From a phage, in assembly GCA_036436775.1 (NCBI GenBank), contig GCA_036436775.1_3676.1: DNA of 64,000 nucleotides; one strand, written 5' to 3'. The notes under the pieces are model-generated. The model searched no databases. It was not told where the DNA came from and saw nothing but the letters and a program-made list of their open reading frames with translations. The position numbers were made by a program, and so were the translations under genes. Each line of letters opens with the position of its first letter. Within the stretch, counting starts at the first letter, position 1. Below, in pieces: positions 23,709 to 31,980 of the stretch.

Positions 23709-24205
23709 TTATTGCGCTCCTTGTAGTAGATATGGCTCCCGAATTGAGCTGTCCTCTGCATCTTTTTTGCCCATTTCGGTCGTACTTTGGTTGTATGGTA
23801 GTGTGTTGCTCCACATGTTATATCCATAGCCATGTATGCAACATGGTTGTTATTATAGACCTTTAGAAGCATCTTTGCAAGACTTTTAGCGTGATCCCAT
23901 GAATCTTTTTCTGTCACCTTAAAAGTTTTGCCGTAGTTTGTCCACGAAAACTGATTAGGTTGGTAGACAATCTTTCTTATAGTGTCTGGGTATTTGGGAT
24001 GAGATTTCCTGTTTAGGGTGGCAAACCCAGATGCCAGCATACCCATCGTGCCATCCCCTCTAGCTTCCCTGTAGATATTGCATGCTAGAATGTTTTCCTT
24101 AGTATCTGATGGCTTGCAAGTATGGTATACTTTTTGTTTTGGTGCTGCAACAACAGGCAGCGATAAAAATGCGCTCAAAATAATAGCAAAGATCTTAATT
24201 TTCAC
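23705..24205 (-). CDS. secreted cell wall hydrolase, SleB (Hydrolase_2) family; candidate signal-peptide endolysin
   Basis: N-terminal signal peptide MKIKIFAIILSAFLSLPVVAAP; ACNIYREARGDG...ATLNR...IVYQPNQFSW matches the SleB-type signature. Confidence 0.55.
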   Translation of the reverse strand: MKIKIFAIILSAFLSLPVVAAPKQKVYHTCKPSDTKENILACNIYREARGDGTMGMLASGFATLNRKSHPKYPDTIRKIVYQPNQFSWTNYGKTFKVTEKDSWDHAKSLAKMLLKVYNNNHVAYMAMDITCGATHYHTTKVRPKWAKKMQRTAQFGSHIYYKERNK

Positions 24206-24211
24206 AATAAC

Positions 24212-24240
24212 TCCAAATAGAAAATCCCCGCCGAAGCGGG
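24212..24240 (-). terminator. rho-independent terminator (hairpin family B, copy 1)
   Basis: Minus strand CCCCGCTTCGGCGGGG (UUCG-type loop) followed by ATTTTCTATTT. Confidence 0.55.
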
Positions 24241-24253
24241 GTGGTCTTAGAAA

Positions 24254-24634
24254 TTAATCGTAGTGTGCCAAAATCTCTCCGTCGTTGCAAGTTCCCTCTA
24301 CAAAGTTATGAAGATTCATGCACTCATCTTGATAGAAGAATTTACCGCTTTTCAGCCGTAAGCCAAACAACTCCGCATCTCCACGATGGCAAGCCTCTAC
24401 AAGTTCATAGATTTCATACGGCAACTCTCCGTCGTCATGGAAGAACCCAGCCTTATCGTTGACATAGATGAAGAAATAATCACTGCTATCGCAAGCGTCC
24501 AATATTTTAAACCAGATTTCATCTACATCTTTTTCTCGGATATCGATCACGCAAGTGGAGCTGCATTCGTACTCCTTCTCCGGCTCCTCGGTCAATACCA
24601 CCAGGTAGTTTCCCCGCTTACCTACTTTAGCCAT
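24254..24634 (-). CDS. hypothetical protein (126 aa)
   Basis: ORF in array. Confidence 0.5.
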   Translation of the reverse strand: MAKVGKRGNYLVVLTEEPEKEYECSSTCVIDIREKDVDEIWFKILDACDSSDYFFIYVNDKAGFFHDDGELPYEIYELVEACHRGDAELFGLRLKSGKFFYQDECMNLHNFVEGTCNDGEILAHYD

Positions 24635-24643
24635 ACAACCTCC

Positions 24644-25828
24644 TTAAGCTTTAGCCAAAATGGCGCTAAACTCTTCACCAAACTCTTTTACAATCTTCAT
24701 CAGGTTTGGGTATGCTTTGATCAGCTGAGCAACAATCTTGTCACGACCTTTACCGATAAGCAAGGCATTTCCTAAGGCATTAGGTTTCATCATCGCCATA
24801 AAGACTGAGAATACAAAATCTCGGTTCTCGTCCTTGAAGTTTTCCCAAAGGAAATCGAGGAAGTTTGCCACGCAGCTGACAAGATCTTCGTCTGAGATAC
24901 TTGCATTTTCCATCATATTACGAATAGCGATACAACCTTCAGATCCAAGAATCCACAAGATGTCTGGCTGTTTAGGACCTACGTATTCTTTGCAACCTCC
25001 TGCCATAATCCGACCGATTTCCGGTAAGTTGCGTTTCTTGGTGTGGTAAGTCCAGATCTCTACCGCTGCAGTGTGACCAATAGCGCCTTGCAGAAGAACA
25101 CGGGCCATAGCGTCAGAAATAATACCACTGTCAAAATCGTGCAAAATATCAGATGCAGCAACCCAAGATCGCGGTGTGGCAAAAGATGGACAATTAATCT
25201 CAGCCATGGCCTCATAATTATCGATAGCTGATGGAACTCTTTTCAGATATCCAATTACAGAGGAGTGCACCCCATTAAGGAATGCGTAGTCCTCAATAAA
25301 CACCTCTGCATTGCTTGTAACTTCTACAATGATAAAACGGTTAGCCAGAGGGGCTTCGAGCGCCGAAAGAACCGCACCATCTGTAGAACGGTTACCAGCA
25401 GCCACAAAAACAGAGCCTTTAGGGAATGCATAGGTGCCGCACTTGTGGTCGAGCATAATTTGCATTGCAACCTTTTGCAGGTAGTTATCTGCATGAGTGA
25501 GCTCATCAAGAAAGATAATTCCGCTCCAGTCAGGATCCGCAGGCCAAAATTCTGGAATTGCAAACACTGTACGTGTAGTTCCATCCGCTTCTACAGGGAT
25601 AGGTAGCCCAGATAAGTCGGCAGGATCTTTATCTGACAGCCGCACGTCAACTAGGTTGTCATCTCGCTCACCGAACATATTGTCGGCGATCTGCTTCATC
25701 ACCTGGCTCTTTCCCACGCCCATTGGTCCTAAAATCAGGACAGATCGGTTATGACGCTGGGCAAACTGAATGATAGCTGGCAACTCACGGACAGTGATTT
25801 GACCACTTTCAAATACGTTTCTTGACAT
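24644..25828 (-). CDS. MoxR-class AAA+ ATPase (AAA_5-type; CobS/CbbQ/NorQ-like)
   Basis: Walker A LILGPMGVGKSQV, Walker B IIFLDELTHAD, sensor FVAAGNRS; single AAA module of ~390 aa. Confidence 0.6.
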   Translation of the reverse strand: MSRNVFESGQITVRELPAIIQFAQRHNRSVLILGPMGVGKSQVMKQIADNMFGERDDNLVDVRLSDKDPADLSGLPIPVEADGTTRTVFAIPEFWPADPDWSGIIFLDELTHADNYLQKVAMQIMLDHKCGTYAFPKGSVFVAAGNRSTDGAVLSALEAPLANRFIIVEVTSNAEVFIEDYAFLNGVHSSVIGYLKRVPSAIDNYEAMAEINCPSFATPRSWVAASDILHDFDSGIISDAMARVLLQGAIGHTAAVEIWTYHTKKRNLPEIGRIMAGGCKEYVGPKQPDILWILGSEGCIAIRNMMENASISDEDLVSCVANFLDFLWENFKDENRDFVFSVFMAMMKPNALGNALLIGKGRDKIVAQLIKAYPNLMKIVKEFGEEFSAILAKA

Positions 25829-26097
25829 TAGTAAAAGTCCTCTACTTGTGTGTAAGTGTTTTCAAAGTTTTCCAAAACAGATATCACATCGGATATGTCA
25901 ATATCATACGTGACTCTCCAGTTGTACGCAACCCTTTCTGCTGTTGCCTCTTCTGGCGCTAGTCGTCTGCTGGCATAAAAGAGTGTTGGAGTACACTTTC
26001 TTGCTTGCCCTCTAACTTTCCCATAATAATATCTGTGAATATCTTTGTCAAAATTTAACTCTTTTTCTGCACGAAGTTCATATTGCTGGTATAACAT
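25828..26097 (-). CDS. hypothetical protein (89 aa)
   Basis: ORF in array. Confidence 0.45.
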   Translation of the reverse strand: MLYQQYELRAEKELNFDKDIHRYYYGKVRGQARKCTPTLFYASRRLAPEEATAERVAYNWRVTYDIDISDVISVLENFENTYTQVEDFY

Positions 26098-26141
26098 CTC
26101 TACTACTCCTTAAGCAGCATCCTTGCCGCCATTCCTGCCCA

Positions 26142-26522
26142 CTAAAATGCAGTCCGAATCCAGACAAGGTTCTTATCTGCCCAATCATAGAGGCAAGTCA
26201 TTGCACTATTGAATTGCTCACACGGAGGATAATCTTCTTCCATCTGGCGCATAGCAGAGCCTTGTGGGTAAAGCTCCCGTGCTGCAAACCACGCGTCGTA
26301 GTCATCAACGGTGTCGAAGTAGTATACAACATCCTCCAACTCAGGATCGAACTTTGAACTATCAGGATCCAGTTGTTCAGGGAACTTGGAGCGTAACTTA
26401 CCAGCCACAATACTTGCCAACTCGCTAACATGCTTATTGTCCCACTCCACTAGCTTCCCGTCTTCAGTGATGCGTCCTAACCACTGATCATGAAGGTCAA
26501 CTGTTGTCTTCCACTGAGCCAT
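26142..26522 (-). CDS. hypothetical protein (126 aa)
   Basis: ORF in array. Confidence 0.5.
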   Translation of the reverse strand: MAQWKTTVDLHDQWLGRITEDGKLVEWDNKHVSELASIVAGKLRSKFPEQLDPDSSKFDPELEDVVYYFDTVDDYDAWFAARELYPQGSAMRQMEEDYPPCEQFNSAMTCLYDWADKNLVWIRTAF

Positions 26523-26524
26523 TA

Positions 26525-26782
26525 TCAGTCCACCTCTTCTTCTCGTTGTAGTTCAAGGTACCCGTAGGTCTGGACATCTTGAAGGGTGTGGAACTCCCCA
26601 TCTGCCGCTAAGGCACGAACAACTTGGCACAAAACCTTATGAGGAACTTCATCCAGACCCAGATTCAGTGCAGGGAACACCTTATCTAAGTCAACAAAAT
26701 AAACGAACTGTAGCTCACCAGCTTCAAAAGGTGTATCTTCAATAAACATCTTCTCGGCATTAGTCAAGATCTGCACTTTCAT
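26525..26782 (-). CDS. hypothetical protein (85 aa)
   Basis: ORF in array. Confidence 0.45.
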   Translation of the reverse strand: MKVQILTNAEKMFIEDTPFEAGELQFVYFVDLDKVFPALNLGLDEVPHKVLCQVVRALAADGEFHTLQDVQTYGYLELQREEEVD

Positions 26783-27138
26783 TATTCTACCTCCTCTTCT
26801 TTTTCTTCGGCATTAGTTTCATGGCTACCCCACTCTGGAGTTTCCACCTCGATAGTAAACTCACGCACTACACGGTAATTGCCCATGAAGCGCTCCACTT
26901 CGTCAAGGCTTACGGAGAAGCCATTGGCAACCAGGTCTGCAGCACCCTCTTCTACCAGGTAGTCCAGATTGGCTTCCAAAGCTTCAGGCTCAAACCCTGT
27001 TAATGCAATCAGATAACCTTCCCCTTCATCAGGGAGGACAATACATCCCAACTGATTTTCTTTGAAAAGGCAGTGACCATCATTGTTGATTGGGTGTTCA
27101 TTGCAGTAAATAGCTGCACGATAAGTAACTTTAGACAT
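26782..27138 (-). CDS. hypothetical protein (118 aa) starting MSKVTYRA inside the 27 bp inverted repeat
   Basis: ATG at 27138 with RBS AAGGAGA; its first 27 nt are identical, in inverted orientation, to 28979-29005. Confidence 0.5.
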   Translation of the reverse strand: MSKVTYRAAIYCNEHPINNDGHCLFKENQLGCIVLPDEGEGYLIALTGFEPEALEANLDYLVEEGAADLVANGFSVSLDEVERFMGNYRVVREFTIEVETPEWGSHETNAEEKEEEVE

Positions 27139-27141
27139 CGG
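27115..27141. repeat. 27 bp perfect inverted repeat, left copy
   Basis: Reverse complement of 27115-27141 is CCGATGTCTAAAGTTACTTATCGTGCA, identical to 28979-29005. Confidence 0.85.
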
Positions 27142-27151
27142 CAAGGTCTCC

Positions 27152-27430
27152 TTAGGCAATTGTCATTTTACATTCTTGAAATTTTAGCACAAGACGGTGA
27201 TTGTGTCTAGTGTCTAAAAAGGTTTTTTCAACCATCAGGCACACGGTATAACCGTCCATCTTGTTGACAACAAAATCTCCAGGGTGAGGGAGGATGTCCC
27301 CCGGATTGGGGAAACATAGTCCACTCAGAAAGGCATCGTCAGTGGTGGACTTAATAGATTTCCACACATTGTCTGCCTGAACATGTTCACCGACGTAATA
27401 TACATTACCACATGCCTTCATCATAGTCAA
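27152..27430 (-). CDS. hypothetical protein (92 aa)
   Basis: ORF in array. Confidence 0.45.
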   Translation of the reverse strand: MTMMKACGNVYYVGEHVQADNVWKSIKSTTDDAFLSGLCFPNPGDILPHPGDFVVNKMDGYTVCLMVEKTFLDTRHNHRLVLKFQECKMTIA

Positions 27431-28326
27431 ACCCTCGCATAAATTAAACTTGTATCAGTATACTTCTTTAATGGACAGATATCCGGCCCGTAGATGTAGT
27501 CATTGAACACCTCATCTATCCAAAGACTGCTCTTATACCCCATCATCTCCAAGACATCCATCTCTTCTTTAGTGAATTTATCACCGCTCTTGCAAGATGT
27601 CAATACCTCATTCTGTACTCTTGCTACCTCGAAGCGGTTATTGGCAATATCACTATTGGCGATCAAATACTCACCCAAAGGGTGTGCAGCATCAAAGATG
27701 CACAAAGGTCGGTTGACGTAATAGTCCCCGGGTGTGTAGAAATTATTCAGGTCCTTCACCAGAACATTCTTATCCGTCACCTCATTTATAACATCATGCA
27801 TACCGCACATCTTTATATGCTTGAGGATTCCATCTCCCATCACAAAATAAAAACTTGCTGAGATACCCTCGACATAGATCTTACTAGATCCGTTGTAGTT
27901 GTATTTTACGCGAATACTCACGGGGGTTTTTCCTGTCGCGTTAGCCATCATCCAAAGAAATGGCAGCTCATACTTCTCCTCTGAGGAAACAAAAGGTGAA
28001 GTTGCCAGAGATCGAAAACCTCCAGAGAAGTTGAAAGTTACAGAACCGCTCCGGCGGTATGATACTGCGTATTCTACTTTTATATCAACATATCCGTTGG
28101 AGTAAGTATGCCCTCCATTATCAAGGTATGTCCACTTATCAGACCCGGATACCAATCTACGCTCAATAACCTTCATCACTACAGGAATTAGCGGGTTGGT
28201 ACAAACCGCTTTTGAAGTAGCTTTAGCATCTAAAGCCTCGTAAATTGCAGAAAGGATGTCCCCAGCTGAAAGATTTGTTGTTATGTCCTGTTTCCACCGC
28301 GTACTAAAACTGTTAAGATTTGCCAT
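27427..28326 (-). CDS. hypothetical protein (299 aa), first gene of the leftward operon
   Basis: ATG at 28326 with AGGAG RBS, directly downstream of the minus-strand promoter. Confidence 0.55.
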   Translation of the reverse strand: MANLNSFSTRWKQDITTNLSAGDILSAIYEALDAKATSKAVCTNPLIPVVMKVIERRLVSGSDKWTYLDNGGHTYSNGYVDIKVEYAVSYRRSGSVTFNFSGGFRSLATSPFVSSEEKYELPFLWMMANATGKTPVSIRVKYNYNGSSKIYVEGISASFYFVMGDGILKHIKMCGMHDVINEVTDKNVLVKDLNNFYTPGDYYVNRPLCIFDAAHPLGEYLIANSDIANNRFEVARVQNEVLTSCKSGDKFTKEEMDVLEMMGYKSSLWIDEVFNDYIYGPDICPLKKYTDTSLIYARV

Positions 28327-28366
28327 GAGGGGGTGCTCCTATGTTAGTTTTATTTCTAATGGGTGC

Positions 28367-28395
28367 ACTATATCGGAGATTCAGAGTAAAGTCAA
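28367..28395 (-). promoter_or_regulatory. sigma70-like promoter, leftward member of divergent pair
   Basis: Minus strand reads TTGACT (28390-28395), 17 nt spacer, TATAGT (28367-28372). Confidence 0.5.
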
Positions 28396-28408
28396 CACGT
28401 TTTTGATG

Positions 28409-28437
28409 TTGACATCTATTGAAACAATTGATACGAT
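28409..28437 (+). promoter_or_regulatory. sigma70-like promoter, rightward member of divergent pair
   Basis: TTGACA (28409-28414), 17 nt spacer, TACGAT (28432-28437); -35 overlaps palindrome GTCAACA-N-TGTTGAC. Confidence 0.5.
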
Positions 28438-28468
28438 TTCTTCACTTACAGAGCACGAGAGACAACTC

Positions 28469-29446
28469 ATGAATCTTGAAAAATATTATACACCAGAAGA
28501 GTTAGAGCGCCTGCTCAAAAAATATAGACGCAAACAGAATAATGCACGGAAACGAGATATAGAGTTCGACCTGTCATGGGAAGAATACCTCCTATTTGGT
28601 AAAAAACTTTTAGGAGATGGAGTATGCGACTATACCCTTATACCTTTTGACATGCACACAGATGAAAACGGGCTGGGAAATCCTTTCTACCCATCTCTGG
28701 AGCGGATAGATGATGAAGGTCCTTATGCGGTTGATAACTGTTGTGTGGTGGGATTGAGATGCAACTCTCTAAAGGACTGTCTGGTAGATAAAAAGACTGC
28801 AGTCTCGATTAAAGACGAAACTGATCGAAAAATTGTCCAGCAGATGATGCTCCACCTGAGCGAAGAGCGTATGGAGAAATTGAAAGGTGATTATACTTTT
28901 GAAGATTTCATCTTGCAATATGGAACGGAAGAGGATAAACTAGCACTCTTTGACGAAGAAGAGGAGGAAGATATGCTACCGATGTCTAAAGTTACTTATC
29001 GTGCACCCAAGAAGCACATTTCCGACATTGTAAACGAGCCTATCACAGAAGAGATTGAAGAAATGACGCAACAGGTGCATGAAGAGGAAAAAGAGACTCA
29101 GTGGGTCGAAGAGGAGCTTACAGAAGAGGTTCCTGCACTACCTGATGATGTTGAGATTGCCAAAGCTTACACTTTCTATTGTCAAGCGTTCTACGATGTA
29201 GGTATGAAAGTTGATCTGTCGTTCAGCCAATTTAAGAGTTCGTATATTCGCAAATGCTGTGCTTTAACTGGTGAACGTCTTGGAGCTGGACTTAAACCCC
29301 TGTTGGTGACCGACTGGAATAAAGGTTTCACTAAAGGAAACTTTATGGTAGTATCTCCAATTATGGAGAAAGCTATGACAGATCTCATGAAGACCACCCG
29401 CATGACAATGACCGAGTTGGCAGGTATTTTCAAACACGTTAAATAA
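28469..29446 (+). CDS. HNH/His-Me-finger endonuclease-like domain fused in frame to a C-terminal domain that begins MSKVTYRA
   Basis: SLERIDDEGPYAVDNCCVVGLRCNSLK resembles the (S/L)DRID..GY..N...C..CN..K signature of phage HNH-type endonucleases; start moved to ATG 28469 downstream of the promoter; internal ATG 28982 with RBS GAGGAGGA lies in the 27 bp repeat. Confidence 0.4.
   Translation: MNLEKYYTPEELERLLKKYRRKQNNARKRDIEFDLSWEEYLLFGKKLLGDGVCDYTLIPFDMHTDENGLGNPFYPSLERIDDEGPYAVDNCCVVGLRCNSLKDCLVDKKTAVSIKDETDRKIVQQMMLHLSEERMEKLKGDYTFEDFILQYGTEEDKLALFDEEEEEDMLPMSKVTYRAPKKHISDIVNEPITEEIEEMTQQVHEEEKETQWVEEELTEEVPALPDDVEIAKAYTFYCQAFYDVGMKVDLSFSQFKSSYIRKCCALTGERLGAGLKPLLVTDWNKGFTKGNFMVVSPIMEKAMTDLMKTTRMTMTELAGIFKHVK
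28979..29005. repeat. 27 bp perfect inverted repeat, right copy
   Basis: CCGATGTCTAAAGTTACTTATCGTGCA, identical to the reverse complement of 27115-27141. Confidence 0.85.
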
Positions 29447-29450
29447 TGAC

Positions 29451-29467
29451 AGGGGCCAATGGCCCCT
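29451..29467 (+). promoter_or_regulatory. intergenic hairpin between the HNH-like ORF and the VWA gene (attenuator or RNA structure)
   Basis: AGGGGCC-AAT-GGCCCCT with no clear U-tract; overlaps the ORF-track ATG at 29459. Confidence 0.3.
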
Positions 29468-29479
29468 TCTGGAGTTTTA

Positions 29480-30940
29480 ATGGATAGCAGAAGTTCAGAA
29501 ATCATTGCCTCACAGAAAGATGATGCCTTGAGAATGTTGCAGGCTGCACGTATGTATCTCCTTGAAAAGCTGCCGTTTTATGGCACACTACTGTCAGGGT
29601 TGCAGTTCGTAGAAAACCACACATGGTGCTCCACCATGGCAACCGACCATAAACGCATCTATTACAGTCCTGAGTTCATTATGGGATTGGCTGATGAACG
29701 CAAGGCTATTCTTAAGGCTTCTCTGACTGACGAGCAGTTTGAGATGGCTGAAGTTTTCTATTCCCCAAAATCTGTGAAAGAGGTGGCCTTCCTTCTGTCA
29801 CATGAGGTGGGGCATATTATCTGTGATCACCTAGTCCGTGGTAAAAGCTTTGAGCCGGAACTGTTCAATATTGCTTGTGATCACGTTATCAACACAGGTC
29901 TTGTGGTTGACTTTAGCAAGCCTCCTTGTGTTTTCTTCCCGAAGGGGAAAAGCACTACGTTCGTGAAAGGTAAACCTTTTGGCTTCTTAGCCAGCTGCTA
30001 CTGCGATATGAAGTTTCATGGATGGATTGCTGAGAACGTTTATGCAGTTCTTGATAAGCAAAGAGATCAGAATAACGGTAAAAGTAAGAACGGTAAAGGT
30101 GAGAACTCTCAAGGGGATAAGCGACAAACAGATGATCACATGAGTGGGAACGGTGGCACCAGTGATGATCTTGGAAAAGCTATGGGGTATGATCAGCCAC
30201 AACCTGTAATCAGCCAATCTGATAAAGATCAGGCCATGCAGGACTCTGGTGATATGCTGGAGGCAGCAATGCAAGCGTCCGGAGGCCGTTGCCCTGAGGC
30301 GGTGCGTGAGTTTGTCAAGAACAGAGGTAAGCCTGTAATCAACTATATAGACATCATTAAGCAACGCATGTTGTCTAAACGAAAGGCTGAACTGACCTAC
30401 AGAAAACCTGGTCGCCGATCTGGGTCTTTGACCAGCACAATGCGAAAAGTTGGGGCTATAAACAAGAACCAGCACGTTATTGTTCCTGGTCGTAATCCGG
30501 AAAACACTATAGATATTGTGGTGGCTTTAGACGTTTCTGGCTCGATCTCTCAAAGAACTTTAAAGAAAATGTTCAATGAAATCACCGGATTGTGCAATCT
30601 GTATAAAGAGTTTAAGGTTACAATGTTCTGTTGGTCAACTGAGGTTGGAGAGGTTAAAGTATACACTCGCGGCAACATAGACGAGATGATTAACTATGAG
30701 GTCCACTCAACATGGGGCACAACAGCTGCTTGCGTGTTCGAGTATCTGGATGCCAACATACCGAATGCAAAAGATGTCATCGTCCTGACCGACCTATACT
30801 TTGAGCATAACTTTGAACAAAAGGCTGTTGACAACAAGTGGAAAAAGTACGATACTTTATGGGTTCTCACTGAAGGGTATAATAAAAATTATATCCCGAG
30901 CTTTGGGAAAACTGTGGAATTAATCGAGTACGCTAAGTAA
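29480..30940 (+). CDS. HExxH metallopeptidase-like + von Willebrand factor A (VWA) domain protein
   Basis: LLSHEVGHIICDHL (HExxH) in the N-terminal half; MIDAS-type VVALDVSGSIS in the C-terminal half; start moved to ATG 29480 (RBS GGAG). Confidence 0.55.
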   Translation: MDSRSSEIIASQKDDALRMLQAARMYLLEKLPFYGTLLSGLQFVENHTWCSTMATDHKRIYYSPEFIMGLADERKAILKASLTDEQFEMAEVFYSPKSVKEVAFLLSHEVGHIICDHLVRGKSFEPELFNIACDHVINTGLVVDFSKPPCVFFPKGKSTTFVKGKPFGFLASCYCDMKFHGWIAENVYAVLDKQRDQNNGKSKNGKGENSQGDKRQTDDHMSGNGGTSDDLGKAMGYDQPQPVISQSDKDQAMQDSGDMLEAAMQASGGRCPEAVREFVKNRGKPVINYIDIIKQRMLSKRKAELTYRKPGRRSGSLTSTMRKVGAINKNQHVIVPGRNPENTIDIVVALDVSGSISQRTLKKMFNEITGLCNLYKEFKVTMFCWSTEVGEVKVYTRGNIDEMINYEVHSTWGTTAACVFEYLDANIPNAKDVIVLTDLYFEHNFEQKAVDNKWKKYDTLWVLTEGYNKNYIPSFGKTVELIEYAK

Positions 30941-30955
30941 GAGAGGAGGTTATTT

Positions 30956-31219
30956 ATGGCAACAGAGTTAAAATTTGCATCAAACCGTAAAACTAAGAAG
31001 TATCTGTCCTCAGTGGCTCCAGGCACTGTGGTGATGTTTATTGATGAACTTGGGGATGTGAATACAGCACTTGTTGTAAAATCACATCCTGCAAACATAT
31101 ATGTTGGGGTATTTGACCTGTTCAGAAAGGTGTTTGTAGAACTACCTCACAGTTTGGTTGTTACAGAAATGGATGCCTGCATAGAAATTCTTGGCGAAGT
31201 TATGGTGGAGGAACAATAA
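30956..31219 (+). CDS. small protein, tandem paralog 1 of 4 (87 aa)
   Basis: MATELKFASNRKTKK...PGTVV...; RBS GAGGAGG; head-to-tail with the next three genes. Confidence 0.55.
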   Translation: MATELKFASNRKTKKYLSSVAPGTVVMFIDELGDVNTALVVKSHPANIYVGVFDLFRKVFVELPHSLVVTEMDACIEILGEVMVEEQ

Positions 31220-31482
31220 TGGCTACTAGCATTGTATTCAATTCTAAGGTGAAGAACAAAAAGCGTGCAGACAGTTTTCCGTGTGGGACCGTGGTAAGTT
31301 GCGACGGAGACGGCATTCAAAACATAGTTATGATTGTCAAAACAGGAGAACATTGTGTGTGGGGGTTCGATTTAGAAAATAATGAGTTGTACGATCTGCC
31401 GCCAAACATGAAAGTTACAGAGCTTGACACCAAAATTACCATCCTTGGAGAGACAAGCTATTCAAAAGAAGGAGGAGAATAA
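31219..31482 (+). CDS. small protein, tandem paralog 2 of 4 (87 aa)
   Basis: MATSIVFNSKVKNKK...CGTVV...; coupled start. Confidence 0.55.
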   Translation: MATSIVFNSKVKNKKRADSFPCGTVVSCDGDGIQNIVMIVKTGEHCVWGFDLENNELYDLPPNMKVTELDTKITILGETSYSKEGGE

Positions 31483-31745
31483 TGACCACAAAAATCACTA
31501 TCGCAGAGCCGAAAGCTAACACTCAGCCTATCGAAAAGTTTAAGTGCGGTGAGGTGGTAACATTCACACCAGATAATGAAGATGCTAAGATTTTCGCAAT
31601 GGTCACAGCTGAGTGGATGTGTGACAACACCACACAAGTACTACGTTTCGATACCTACCTCACAGATGAGATCCGAAACGATAAGATCGTGACAGGTGTG
31701 GACACTGAAATTATTTTCTACAAGAGCTTTTTAGAGGGTTTCTGA
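31482..31745 (+). CDS. small protein, tandem paralog 3 of 4 (87 aa)
   Basis: MTTKITIAEPK...CGEVV...; same length and pattern. Confidence 0.5.
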   Translation: MTTKITIAEPKANTQPIEKFKCGEVVTFTPDNEDAKIFAMVTAEWMCDNTTQVLRFDTYLTDEIRNDKIVTGVDTEIIFYKSFLEGF

Positions 31746-31746
31746 T

Positions 31747-31980
31747 ATGGCAAAAATTCGTAAATTATCCAGCAATCAGGTTGTGAAAGACTTTGAATCT
31801 GGAGAGATTCTGTATGTTCGTGATGCAGATGACGAAGGTGAAGATCTTGTTATGTTGGTGGGGCACGCTGAGGACGGATGCATCCAAGCTGTTTTTCTTG
31901 AAACAGCTATGGTGCACTGGATAGAGCTGGACTTGAAAGCACGAAAACCTAAAGCAGAAATCCTGATCTACGAAGACTAG
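31747..31980 (+). CDS. small protein, tandem paralog 4 of 4 (77 aa, more diverged)
   Basis: MAKIRKLSSNQ...SGEIL...; same array. Confidence 0.45.
   Translation: MAKIRKLSSNQVVKDFESGEILYVRDADDEGEDLVMLVGHAEDGCIQAVFLETAMVHWIELDLKARKPKAEILIYED

Follow-up and report, generated by a model that had tools for sequence, protein, structure and literature searches.

In a 64,000-nucleotide (nt) stretch of phage DNA (NCBI GenBank assembly GCA_036436775.1, contig GCA_036436775.1_3676.1; here called the window), two genes on opposite strands encode a predicted MoxR-class AAA+ ATPase and a protein, referred to below as its partner, in which an HExxH motif is combined with a MIDAS-type VWA domain. Our analysis leans, with slightly more confidence than doubt, toward the view that the two genes encode the halves of one conserved machine of the type represented by gp24 and gp25 of phage N4, and that this machine would be an ATP-dependent, adaptor-targeted protease of early or middle infection.

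A first-pass annotation, made from the sequence alone, had noticed the two genes, and its observation and interpretation were correct apart from a detail concerning four small genes that follow the partner gene. Both open reading frames (ORFs) that it had placed, 24644-25828 (-; 394 amino acids, aa) and 29480-30940 (+; 486 aa), are present in the ORF table. A 7-kb region around the gene pair is 97-98% identical to more than 100 rV5-like Escherichia coli myophages (Vequintavirus), among them MiataMamis, LL12, Murica, and EdH4; by this comparison, the window is an rV5-like Vequintavirus.

The Partner Combines a Zincin-Like Domain with a VWA Domain

The features of the partner gene to which we refer are as follows.

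29480-30940 (+): DUF2201-type protein, 486 aa, ortholog of rV5 gp12, LL12_012, and N4 gp25
29801-29830 (+): HEVGHIICDH, aa 108-117, an HExxH motif with a third His; predicted zinc/catalytic site
30068-30163 (+): low-complexity linker rich in Gly, Asp, Lys, and Asn, about aa 197-228; predicted to be disordered
30530-30796 (+): VWA/MIDAS residues D351, S353, S355, T414, and D438, invariant in 34 sequences
30530-30544 (+): DVSGS, the first part of a complete MIDAS motif (DxSxS...T...D)

The reading frame is open back to 29459, and GenBank relatives begin at the equivalent of 29480. Two Pfam families matched the protein above their curated cut-offs: DUF2201_N (PF13203; E 3e-28, 99.7 bits against a cut-off of 23.2) and the VWA-like DUF2201 (PF09967; E 3.6e-11, 43.7 bits against a cut-off of 26.4). 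The peptidase-like DUF2201_N comes first and DUF2201 lies at the C-terminal side; the family bears the name "predicted metal-dependent peptidase." In an alignment of 34 diverse sequences, residues H108, E109, H112, and H117 of the HExxHxxxxH motif are invariant, as is an A-x-D motif. Profile comparisons of the N-terminal domain gave weak similarities (E 0.007-0.5) to the M48-like minimal zincin MJ1213 (E 0.007), BepA, and HtpX.

The AlphaFold2 (AF2) model of the partner, with a predicted local distance difference test score (pLDDT) of 81.6, has an N-terminal half that is helical and well predicted, followed by a disordered linker and, at the C terminus, an alpha/beta domain. Residues 201-228 have a pLDDT below 50, and the length of the linker is highly variable across the alignment. 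When the whole model was used in structural searches, the matches listed were VWA domains, and NorD VWA chains from NorQ-NorD complexes were among them. The overall architecture is therefore predicted to be an N-terminal zincin-like domain, a disordered linker, a helical middle region, and a C-terminal VWA/MIDAS domain. We conclude from sequence and model that the partner is a zincin-like domain joined through a disordered linker to a VWA/MIDAS domain, with peptidase activity predicted. The earlier description of the protein as combining HExxH with a MIDAS-type VWA domain is thus confirmed by the Pfam matches and the invariant motifs.

Several existing labels of this protein were considered and rejected. 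PHROG phrog_1314 labels it "HNH endonuclease," and GenBank entries call it "anti-sigma factor" or "DNA repair ATPase"; we found no HNH match, and the protein has DUF2201_N and VWA domains instead. The "HNH endonuclease" label of PHROG 1314 has spread to RefSeq entries, including N4 gp25 (our locus L170, 3165-4307), Murica, JES2013, and many N4-like phages.

The ATPase Belongs with MoxR, Midasin, and Dynein

The ATPase gene has the following features.

24644-25828 (-): MoxR-class AAA+ ATPase, 394 aa, ortholog of rV5 gp4, LL12_004, and N4 gp24
25706-25729 (-): Walker A, GPMGVGKS, aa 34-41; G37, G39, K40, and S41 invariant in 40 sequences
25502-25513 (-): Walker B, FLDE, aa 106-109; D108 and E109 invariant in the 40-sequence alignment
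25163-25402 (-): AAGNR (aa 143-147), LANRF (aa 161-165), and the sensor-2-like TPRSW (aa 218-222); invariant columns

The protein consists of one AAA+ module (about aa 10-270) followed by a C-terminal helical extension. Its set of AAA+ motifs is complete, with each motif at invariant columns of the 40-sequence alignment; besides the Walker residues, these include N146, R147, N163, R164, P219, and R220. From general knowledge of AAA+ proteins, the residues of AAGNR, LANRF, and TPRSW are likely to play sensor-1, arginine-finger, and sensor-2 roles.

The first-pass annotation had proposed profile searches for AAA_5, VWA, and DUF2201_N. Matches above cut-off were obtained for DUF2201_N and the VWA-like DUF2201 but not for the ATPase itself, which scored 16.7 bits against AAA_5 (PF07728), below the cut-off of 22, and for which AAA_3 (PF07726) was not among the Pfam matches. 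A database search instead returned a graded series of relatives in which AAA_3, AAA_5, and sometimes bpMoxR appear from about 35% identity downward. The relatives with such precomputed matches, which are marked as weak, are 31-36% identical to the window protein (phmmer E about 1e-42 to 1e-45). Because the window protein itself is below the AAA_5 cut-off, its membership of the MoxR class rests on transitive homology.

The best solved match of the ATPase profile was midasin (E 5e-10), and the nearest solved relatives, both by profile and by fold, were MoxR, midasin, or dynein modules. The margin over Hsp100 modules is small, and so the placement in a clade rests on the combined evidence. Single-sequence P-loop matches in Pfam, NCBIfam, and solved structures (ClpB, ClpC, and p97) would by themselves have pointed to a Clp-type ATPase, but this assignment was overturned by the profile and fold comparisons. 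In the AF2 secondary structure, helix 69-73 is followed by a hairpin (strands 75-81 and 84-90) and then by the Walker B strand 102-108, and short strands at about 129-135 precede strand 138-145. This arrangement, taken from a model, is consistent with the beta-hairpin inserts of the MoxR class after helix 2 and before sensor 1. Judged by these sequence comparisons, the ATPase is a member of the MoxR/dynein/midasin clade of AAA+ proteins, in agreement with its original description as a single-module MoxR-class ATPase.

The ATPase and a DUF2201 Gene Are Paired in Phages and Bacteria

The two proteins had been described as a signature pairing of MoxR-VWA systems, and we examined their co-occurrence. 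IMG/VR loci were gathered with the ATPase alignment and profile; the VWA alignment, in which no stretch was conserved enough, was unusable for a scan. The partner gene was present in 70 of the 80 loci that hold the ATPase, most of which come from one freshwater phage group and so are not independent. In 68 of these 70 informative loci, the DUF2201 gene is directly downstream of the ATPase gene and on the same strand; in the other two, which are rV5-like, the genes are divergent. Nine of the remaining 10 loci stop at most 184 nt from the ATPase gene; the tenth (L041) has one further ORF before the contig ends.

The pair is adjacent and co-directional in phage N4 (gp24, then gp25), and it is also adjacent in an N4-like phage of Sulfitobacter (a roseophage). 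In myophage contigs of 146 kb and 87 kb, whose ATPases are about 35% identical to that of the window, a gene with DUF2201_N and DUF2201 follows immediately downstream. Among bacteria, the genes are adjacent in Sulfurivermis, where a ferrochelatase gene is nearby, and in at least 41 of 80 bacterial loci, mostly from Campylobacterota. Nineteen bacterial loci, mostly from Sulfurovum, have the ATPase without a DUF2201 gene within about 5.7 kb downstream. We observed that a chromosomal pair is common in Campylobacterota (Sulfuricurvum, Sulfurimonas, and Sulfurospirillum; loci L090-L169) and that one Helicobacteraceae contig carries two copies (L168 and L169). No conserved third gene was found beside the pair in either phage or bacterial neighborhoods.

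In a tblastn search of 50,697 phage records, 813 matched the ATPase and 634 the partner. The matches span Vequintavirinae-like phages, Schitoviridae, jumbo phages, cyanophage S-TIM5, and others, and the jumbo phages PBECO4, 121Q, phAPEC6, and PA5oct have homologs of both genes. The partner profile matched about 14,800 clusters at E <= 1e-30 in a set of 1.84 billion representatives. The pairing of the ATPase with a DUF2201 protein is genuine, as the first-pass annotation had claimed.

The closest parallel to the window pair is N4 gp24/gp25 of the Schitoviridae. Both families are homologous to their N4 counterparts (hhalign probability 99.9, E 3e-35, and probability 100, E 1.3e-55), the domain architecture is the same, and in both phages the genes lie outside the structural module and near rII genes. 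The proteins of the two phages are, however, only about 23-27% identical. The N4 genes are adjacent and co-directional, whereas those of the window are split and divergent; and the N4 genes are middle genes transcribed by phage RNA polymerase II, whereas the window has matches to sigma-70-like promoters.

The Divergent Arrangement Is Old

In the window, the ATPase and partner genes are on opposite strands, 3.65 kb apart, on either side of an intergenic region at 28327-28468. Their nonadjacent, opposite placement around a divergent promoter and an inverted-repeat segment was recognized in the first-pass annotation. We saw this split form only in Vequintavirus and in relatives whose ATPases are 49-53% identical (Raoultella phage Ro1, a further contig [L011], and 4MG); it is kept in all such relatives and in 115 of 122 rV5-like records. 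All catalytic and MIDAS residues are intact in both genes across this whole set. Because the split is common to Vequintavirus and its 49-53% identical relatives, it is old and stable, and its persistence in those relatives indicates that the pair has been kept together through a long divergence despite the separation. The genes were thus parted by a rearrangement long ago in Vequintavirinae, and both halves have retained their key residues.

The gene order, set beside that of the adjacent-type contigs L006 and L012, would fit an origin by a single inversion of a block containing the promoter, the upstream genes, and the ATPase; these contigs share too few flanking genes with the window to discriminate.

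Annotation of the close relatives agrees with our assignments. LL12 gene 004 is annotated as "MoxR ATPase" and gene 012 as "putative metallopeptidase," and the 2013 annotation of rV5 (Table S3, PMC3606486) gives gp4 as "MoxR - ATPase" and gp12 as "CHP; DUF2201_N." In the rV5 reference (the same table), the equivalent of 29480-30940 is split into gp12 (441 aa) and an overlapping gp13 (81 aa). In the window and in LL12, the same region is one undivided ORF of 486 aa, so that the VWA domain of the rV5 record must contain either a frameshift or an error of sequencing. We also observed that 16 records named "Campylobacter phage" (host C. jejuni) match positions 24000-31000 of the window, with 97% identity for the one listed, C12. 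These matches suggest that the hosts are mislabeled or that contaminating coliphages are present in that data set.

The Genomic Context Points to Early or Middle Infection

The pair in the window has as neighbors rIIA, a gene for an Srd-like anti-sigma protein, and small ORFs of early type, together with matches to host-type sigma-70-like promoters. In N4, the pair is located between an endonuclease gene and a dCTP deaminase gene, near rIIA/rIIB. Elsewhere, it lies between a 5'-3' exonuclease gene and a thymidylate synthase gene, or between genes for an RNA polymerase subunit and dUTPase/ThyX. According to Chan et al. (PMC4193335), the 14 core genes of N4-like phages include N4 genes 24 ("unknown") and 25 ("vWFA domain"), both of them middle transcripts. 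Mass spectrometry detected 19 proteins in rV5 virions, and neither the ATPase nor the partner was one of them, which is weak evidence. Because of this gene context (DNA metabolism, rII, and promoter matches) and the absence from the rV5 virion proteome, an early or middle, nonstructural role in host takeover or replication is favored over the published assembly hypothesis that we discuss below.

The Promoter Region and Neighboring Genes

The two transcription units diverge from a short control region.

28327-28468 (no strand): divergent intergenic control region, 142 nt, with back-to-back sigma-70-like matches

The leftward unit includes rIIA, a SleB-type hydrolase gene, a 126-aa ORF, the ATPase gene, and six small ORFs that reach 28326. 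The Srd-like "anti-sigma" gene (28469-29446) and the DUF2201 gene belong to the rightward unit, together with a series of small ORFs. The sign of the GC skew switches where the units meet. The rightward promoter match comprises TTGACA (from 28409), a 17-nt spacer, and TACGAT with an upstream TG (10/12), and the leftward match comprises TTGACT (from 28395), 17 nt, and TATAGT (10/12). Bidirectional promoters have been described between rV5 genes 10 and 11 (Kropinski et al. 2013, PMC3606486). Both of the divergent -35 elements sit inside a palindrome, GTCAACA...TGTTGAC, at 28391-28413 (GTCAACACGTTTTTGATGTTGAC), which a terminator scan also flags as a stem-loop. This palindrome could be a putative operator for a regulator of both promoters.

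The promoter region is bracketed by a perfect inverted repeat of 27 nt (27115-27141 on the minus strand and 28979-29005 on the plus strand). No such repeat is expected by chance, and it is kept in phage LL12. Both arms are coding, in frame, for P-M-S-K-V-T-Y-R-A: the first is the start of a 118/125-aa gene (26782-27159, -), and the second lies within the Srd-like gene (28469-29446, +). The arms are separated by 1837 nt, with the bidirectional promoter between them. Were the arms to recombine, the promoter would be inverted and the two genes would exchange their 3' parts in frame.

Four small ORFs of 87, 87, 87, and 77 aa follow the VWA gene, and it was these that the first-pass annotation had called tandem paralogs. 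The four ORFs exist, but only the first two (30956-31482, +) are demonstrable paralogs, with 38% identity and a shared PHROG (10698); the stop codon of the first overlaps the start of the second. The third and fourth (31482-31745 and 31747-31980) belong to other PHROGs and are 15-20% identical to the first. The rV5 reference has three small genes at this location (85, 87, and 77 aa).

Two other labels in the region look unsupported. An 89-aa ORF (25828-26097, -) that overlaps the start of the ATPase gene is labeled "ATPase" (phrog_13164) and has no Pfam match, and a 299-aa ORF (27427-28326, -) is called "alpha 1-3 fucosyltransferase" in GenBank and has no Pfam or NCBIfam match.

Discussion

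The likeliest mechanism for the pair is suggested by cellular MoxR-VWA systems, with NorQ/NorD as the best template. In NorQ/NorD, a single VWA partner is seated on the MoxR hexamer and inserts a finger into its pore, acidic residues of the target are bound at the MIDAS site, and ATP hydrolysis twists and stretches the NorD linker (PMC9976466, PMC13036017). The phage partner shares this layout in three parts, but it carries an invariant HExxH in its N-terminal domain, whereas the domain at NorD's N terminus is not a peptidase and NorQ/NorD puts iron into nitric oxide reductase. The phage proteins also differ from NorQ/NorD, CbbQ/CbbO, and RavA/ViaA in that they are only 10-20% identical to them and in that an additional helical extension of ~120 aa is present at the C terminus of the phage ATPase.

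By analogy with these three systems, the phage ATPase would form a hexamer, and a single partner molecule would dock onto it by way of the VWA domain. The partner's MIDAS metal would bind an acidic residue on a target protein, ATP hydrolysis would pull or twist the partner linker together with the bound target, and the attached HExxH domain would then cleave the target or would itself be switched on. The net result would be an ATP-dependent, adaptor-targeted protease built from two polypeptides. The gene context suggests that it would act in early or middle infection on a protein of the host or the phage that is tied to takeover, replication, or nucleotide metabolism, and that it would not take part in assembling heads or tails. 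In Vequintavirinae, the shared promoter region would keep expression of the separated genes coordinated. A narrower version, in which the MIDAS site of an early two-piece protease captures one specific host protein (for example, a transcription, replication, or immunity factor) that is then cleaved, is possible, and we offer it tentatively.

A rival to the early or middle protease comes from the literature on jumbo phages. Passages of Iyer et al. (2021; PMC7824862) describe a MoxR-vWA pair with an N-terminal metallopeptidase in jumbo phages of group 2.2, an architecture that matches the window pair exactly, and predict a role in virion assembly, for which they cite the precedent of Acidianus two-tailed virus. 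The pair would on that account be a chaperone and protease that fold, assemble, and proteolytically process structural proteins. It accords with the fact that MoxR-VWA systems are generally assembly or maturation chaperones and with the homologs of both genes in the four jumbo phages named above. The p618 (MoxR) and p892 (VWA) proteins of the Acidianus virus form a viral pair for which experiments are reported to support a chaperone role; compared by description only, they differ from the window pair in that they are archaeal, have no peptidase domain, and serve extracellular tail growth. We nevertheless consider virion assembly unlikely for the window pair. Every lineage that we examined has the pair in early or middle regions among DNA-metabolism genes and not in structural modules, N4 gp24/25 are reported as middle genes (PMC4193335), both proteins are absent from the rV5 virion proteome (again, weak evidence), and bacterial chromosomes carry the pair without conserved phage structural genes alongside.

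The best-documented job of MoxR-VWA pairs is the insertion of metal cofactors or the activation of metalloenzymes, in the style of NorQ/NorD, CoxD/CoxE, CbbQ/CbbO, CobS/CobT, and BchI/BchD. Were this true of the phage pair, the HExxH motif would bind or hand over a metal without cutting protein, and the client might be, for example, an enzyme of nucleotide metabolism. The frequent proximity of the pair to thymidylate synthases, dCTP deaminase, dUTPase, and a QueE-like radical-SAM enzyme would suit such a role, as would the ferrochelatase near the pair in Sulfurivermis, but no single enzyme is conserved beside the pair across lineages. Moreover, the glutamate of HExxH, which is the catalytic base in zincins, is invariant, as hydrolysis predicts, and there is no match to the CobS, CobT, NorD, or CbbO families, so we think a metal-cofactor role quite improbable. 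CobS/CobT, the aerobic cobaltochelatase that is common in cyanophages, shares with the window pair the theme of an AAA_5-type ATPase and a VWA protein by analogy only, and CobT lacks an HExxH domain. The first-pass label "CobS/CobT-like, DUF2201-type" accordingly survives in its DUF2201 part, which Pfam supports, and fails in the other, as no match to CobS_N, CobT, or CobT_C was found in Pfam or NCBIfam at E <= 0.01.

The pair might instead serve counter-defense or conflict between phages, as a machine that destroys a host immunity protein or a competitor protein and is dispensable on defense-free hosts, like rII. Its early placement beside rIIA (which counters Rex) in the window and in N4, the use of MoxR-vWA cores in bacterial conflict systems, and the presence of a bpMoxR domain (PF20030) in some relatives are in line with this idea. 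A core pair of all N4-like phages with some 14,800 partner clusters would, however, be atypical of accessory genes, and we found neither a variable effector nor a third component. PADLOC gave weak, P-loop-level matches for the ATPase and none for the partner, so there was no meaningful match to a defense system, and beside the pair there was no conserved third gene that could correspond to the VMAP, beta-propeller, or FtsH-type component of vWA-MoxR ternary conflict systems (Kaur et al. 2020). We give this explanation little weight. That the Vequintavirinae genes no longer cooperate after the split and have taken on separate roles seems highly improbable. The genes do lie 3.65 kb apart in different transcription units, and the 19 Sulfurovum-type loci have the ATPase without a DUF2201 gene nearby, but every catalytic and MIDAS residue is intact in both genes, in Vequintavirus as in its 49-53% identical relatives, and the genes flank one shared promoter region.

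The pair itself is already known: it is annotated in near-identical genomes, and its architecture is described in one comparative paper. Three points are mildly new. One is that rV5 gp4/gp12 are explicitly connected with N4 gp24/gp25 and with the jumbo-phage pair; a link to N4 gp24/25 was not found in the passages of Iyer et al. (2021), which are concerned with jumbo phages only, so that Vequintavirinae and the split arrangement lie outside their coverage. The others are that the split arrangement is confined to the Vequintavirinae lineage and that the gene context argues against a structural role. Consistent with the first-pass statement that the function in phages is undefined, our literature searches found no functional study of rV5 gp4/gp12, N4 gp24/gp25, or any other phage member, and no genome-wide knock-down data for EdH4.

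The module is very common, and core in N4-like phages. The arrangement in Vequintavirinae provides a natural experiment, in that the two halves need not be co-translated from a single operon. If the narrower proposal of an early two-piece protease with one specific host target is true, it would represent a mechanism of host takeover so far undescribed for phages, and it would explain both the core-gene status of the pair in N4-like phages and its retention in Vequintavirinae after separation. A targeted ATP-dependent protease acting on a host factor would be a new class of phage takeover tool, and the proposal, if correct, would also provide a function for a large family of uncharacterized bacterial genes.

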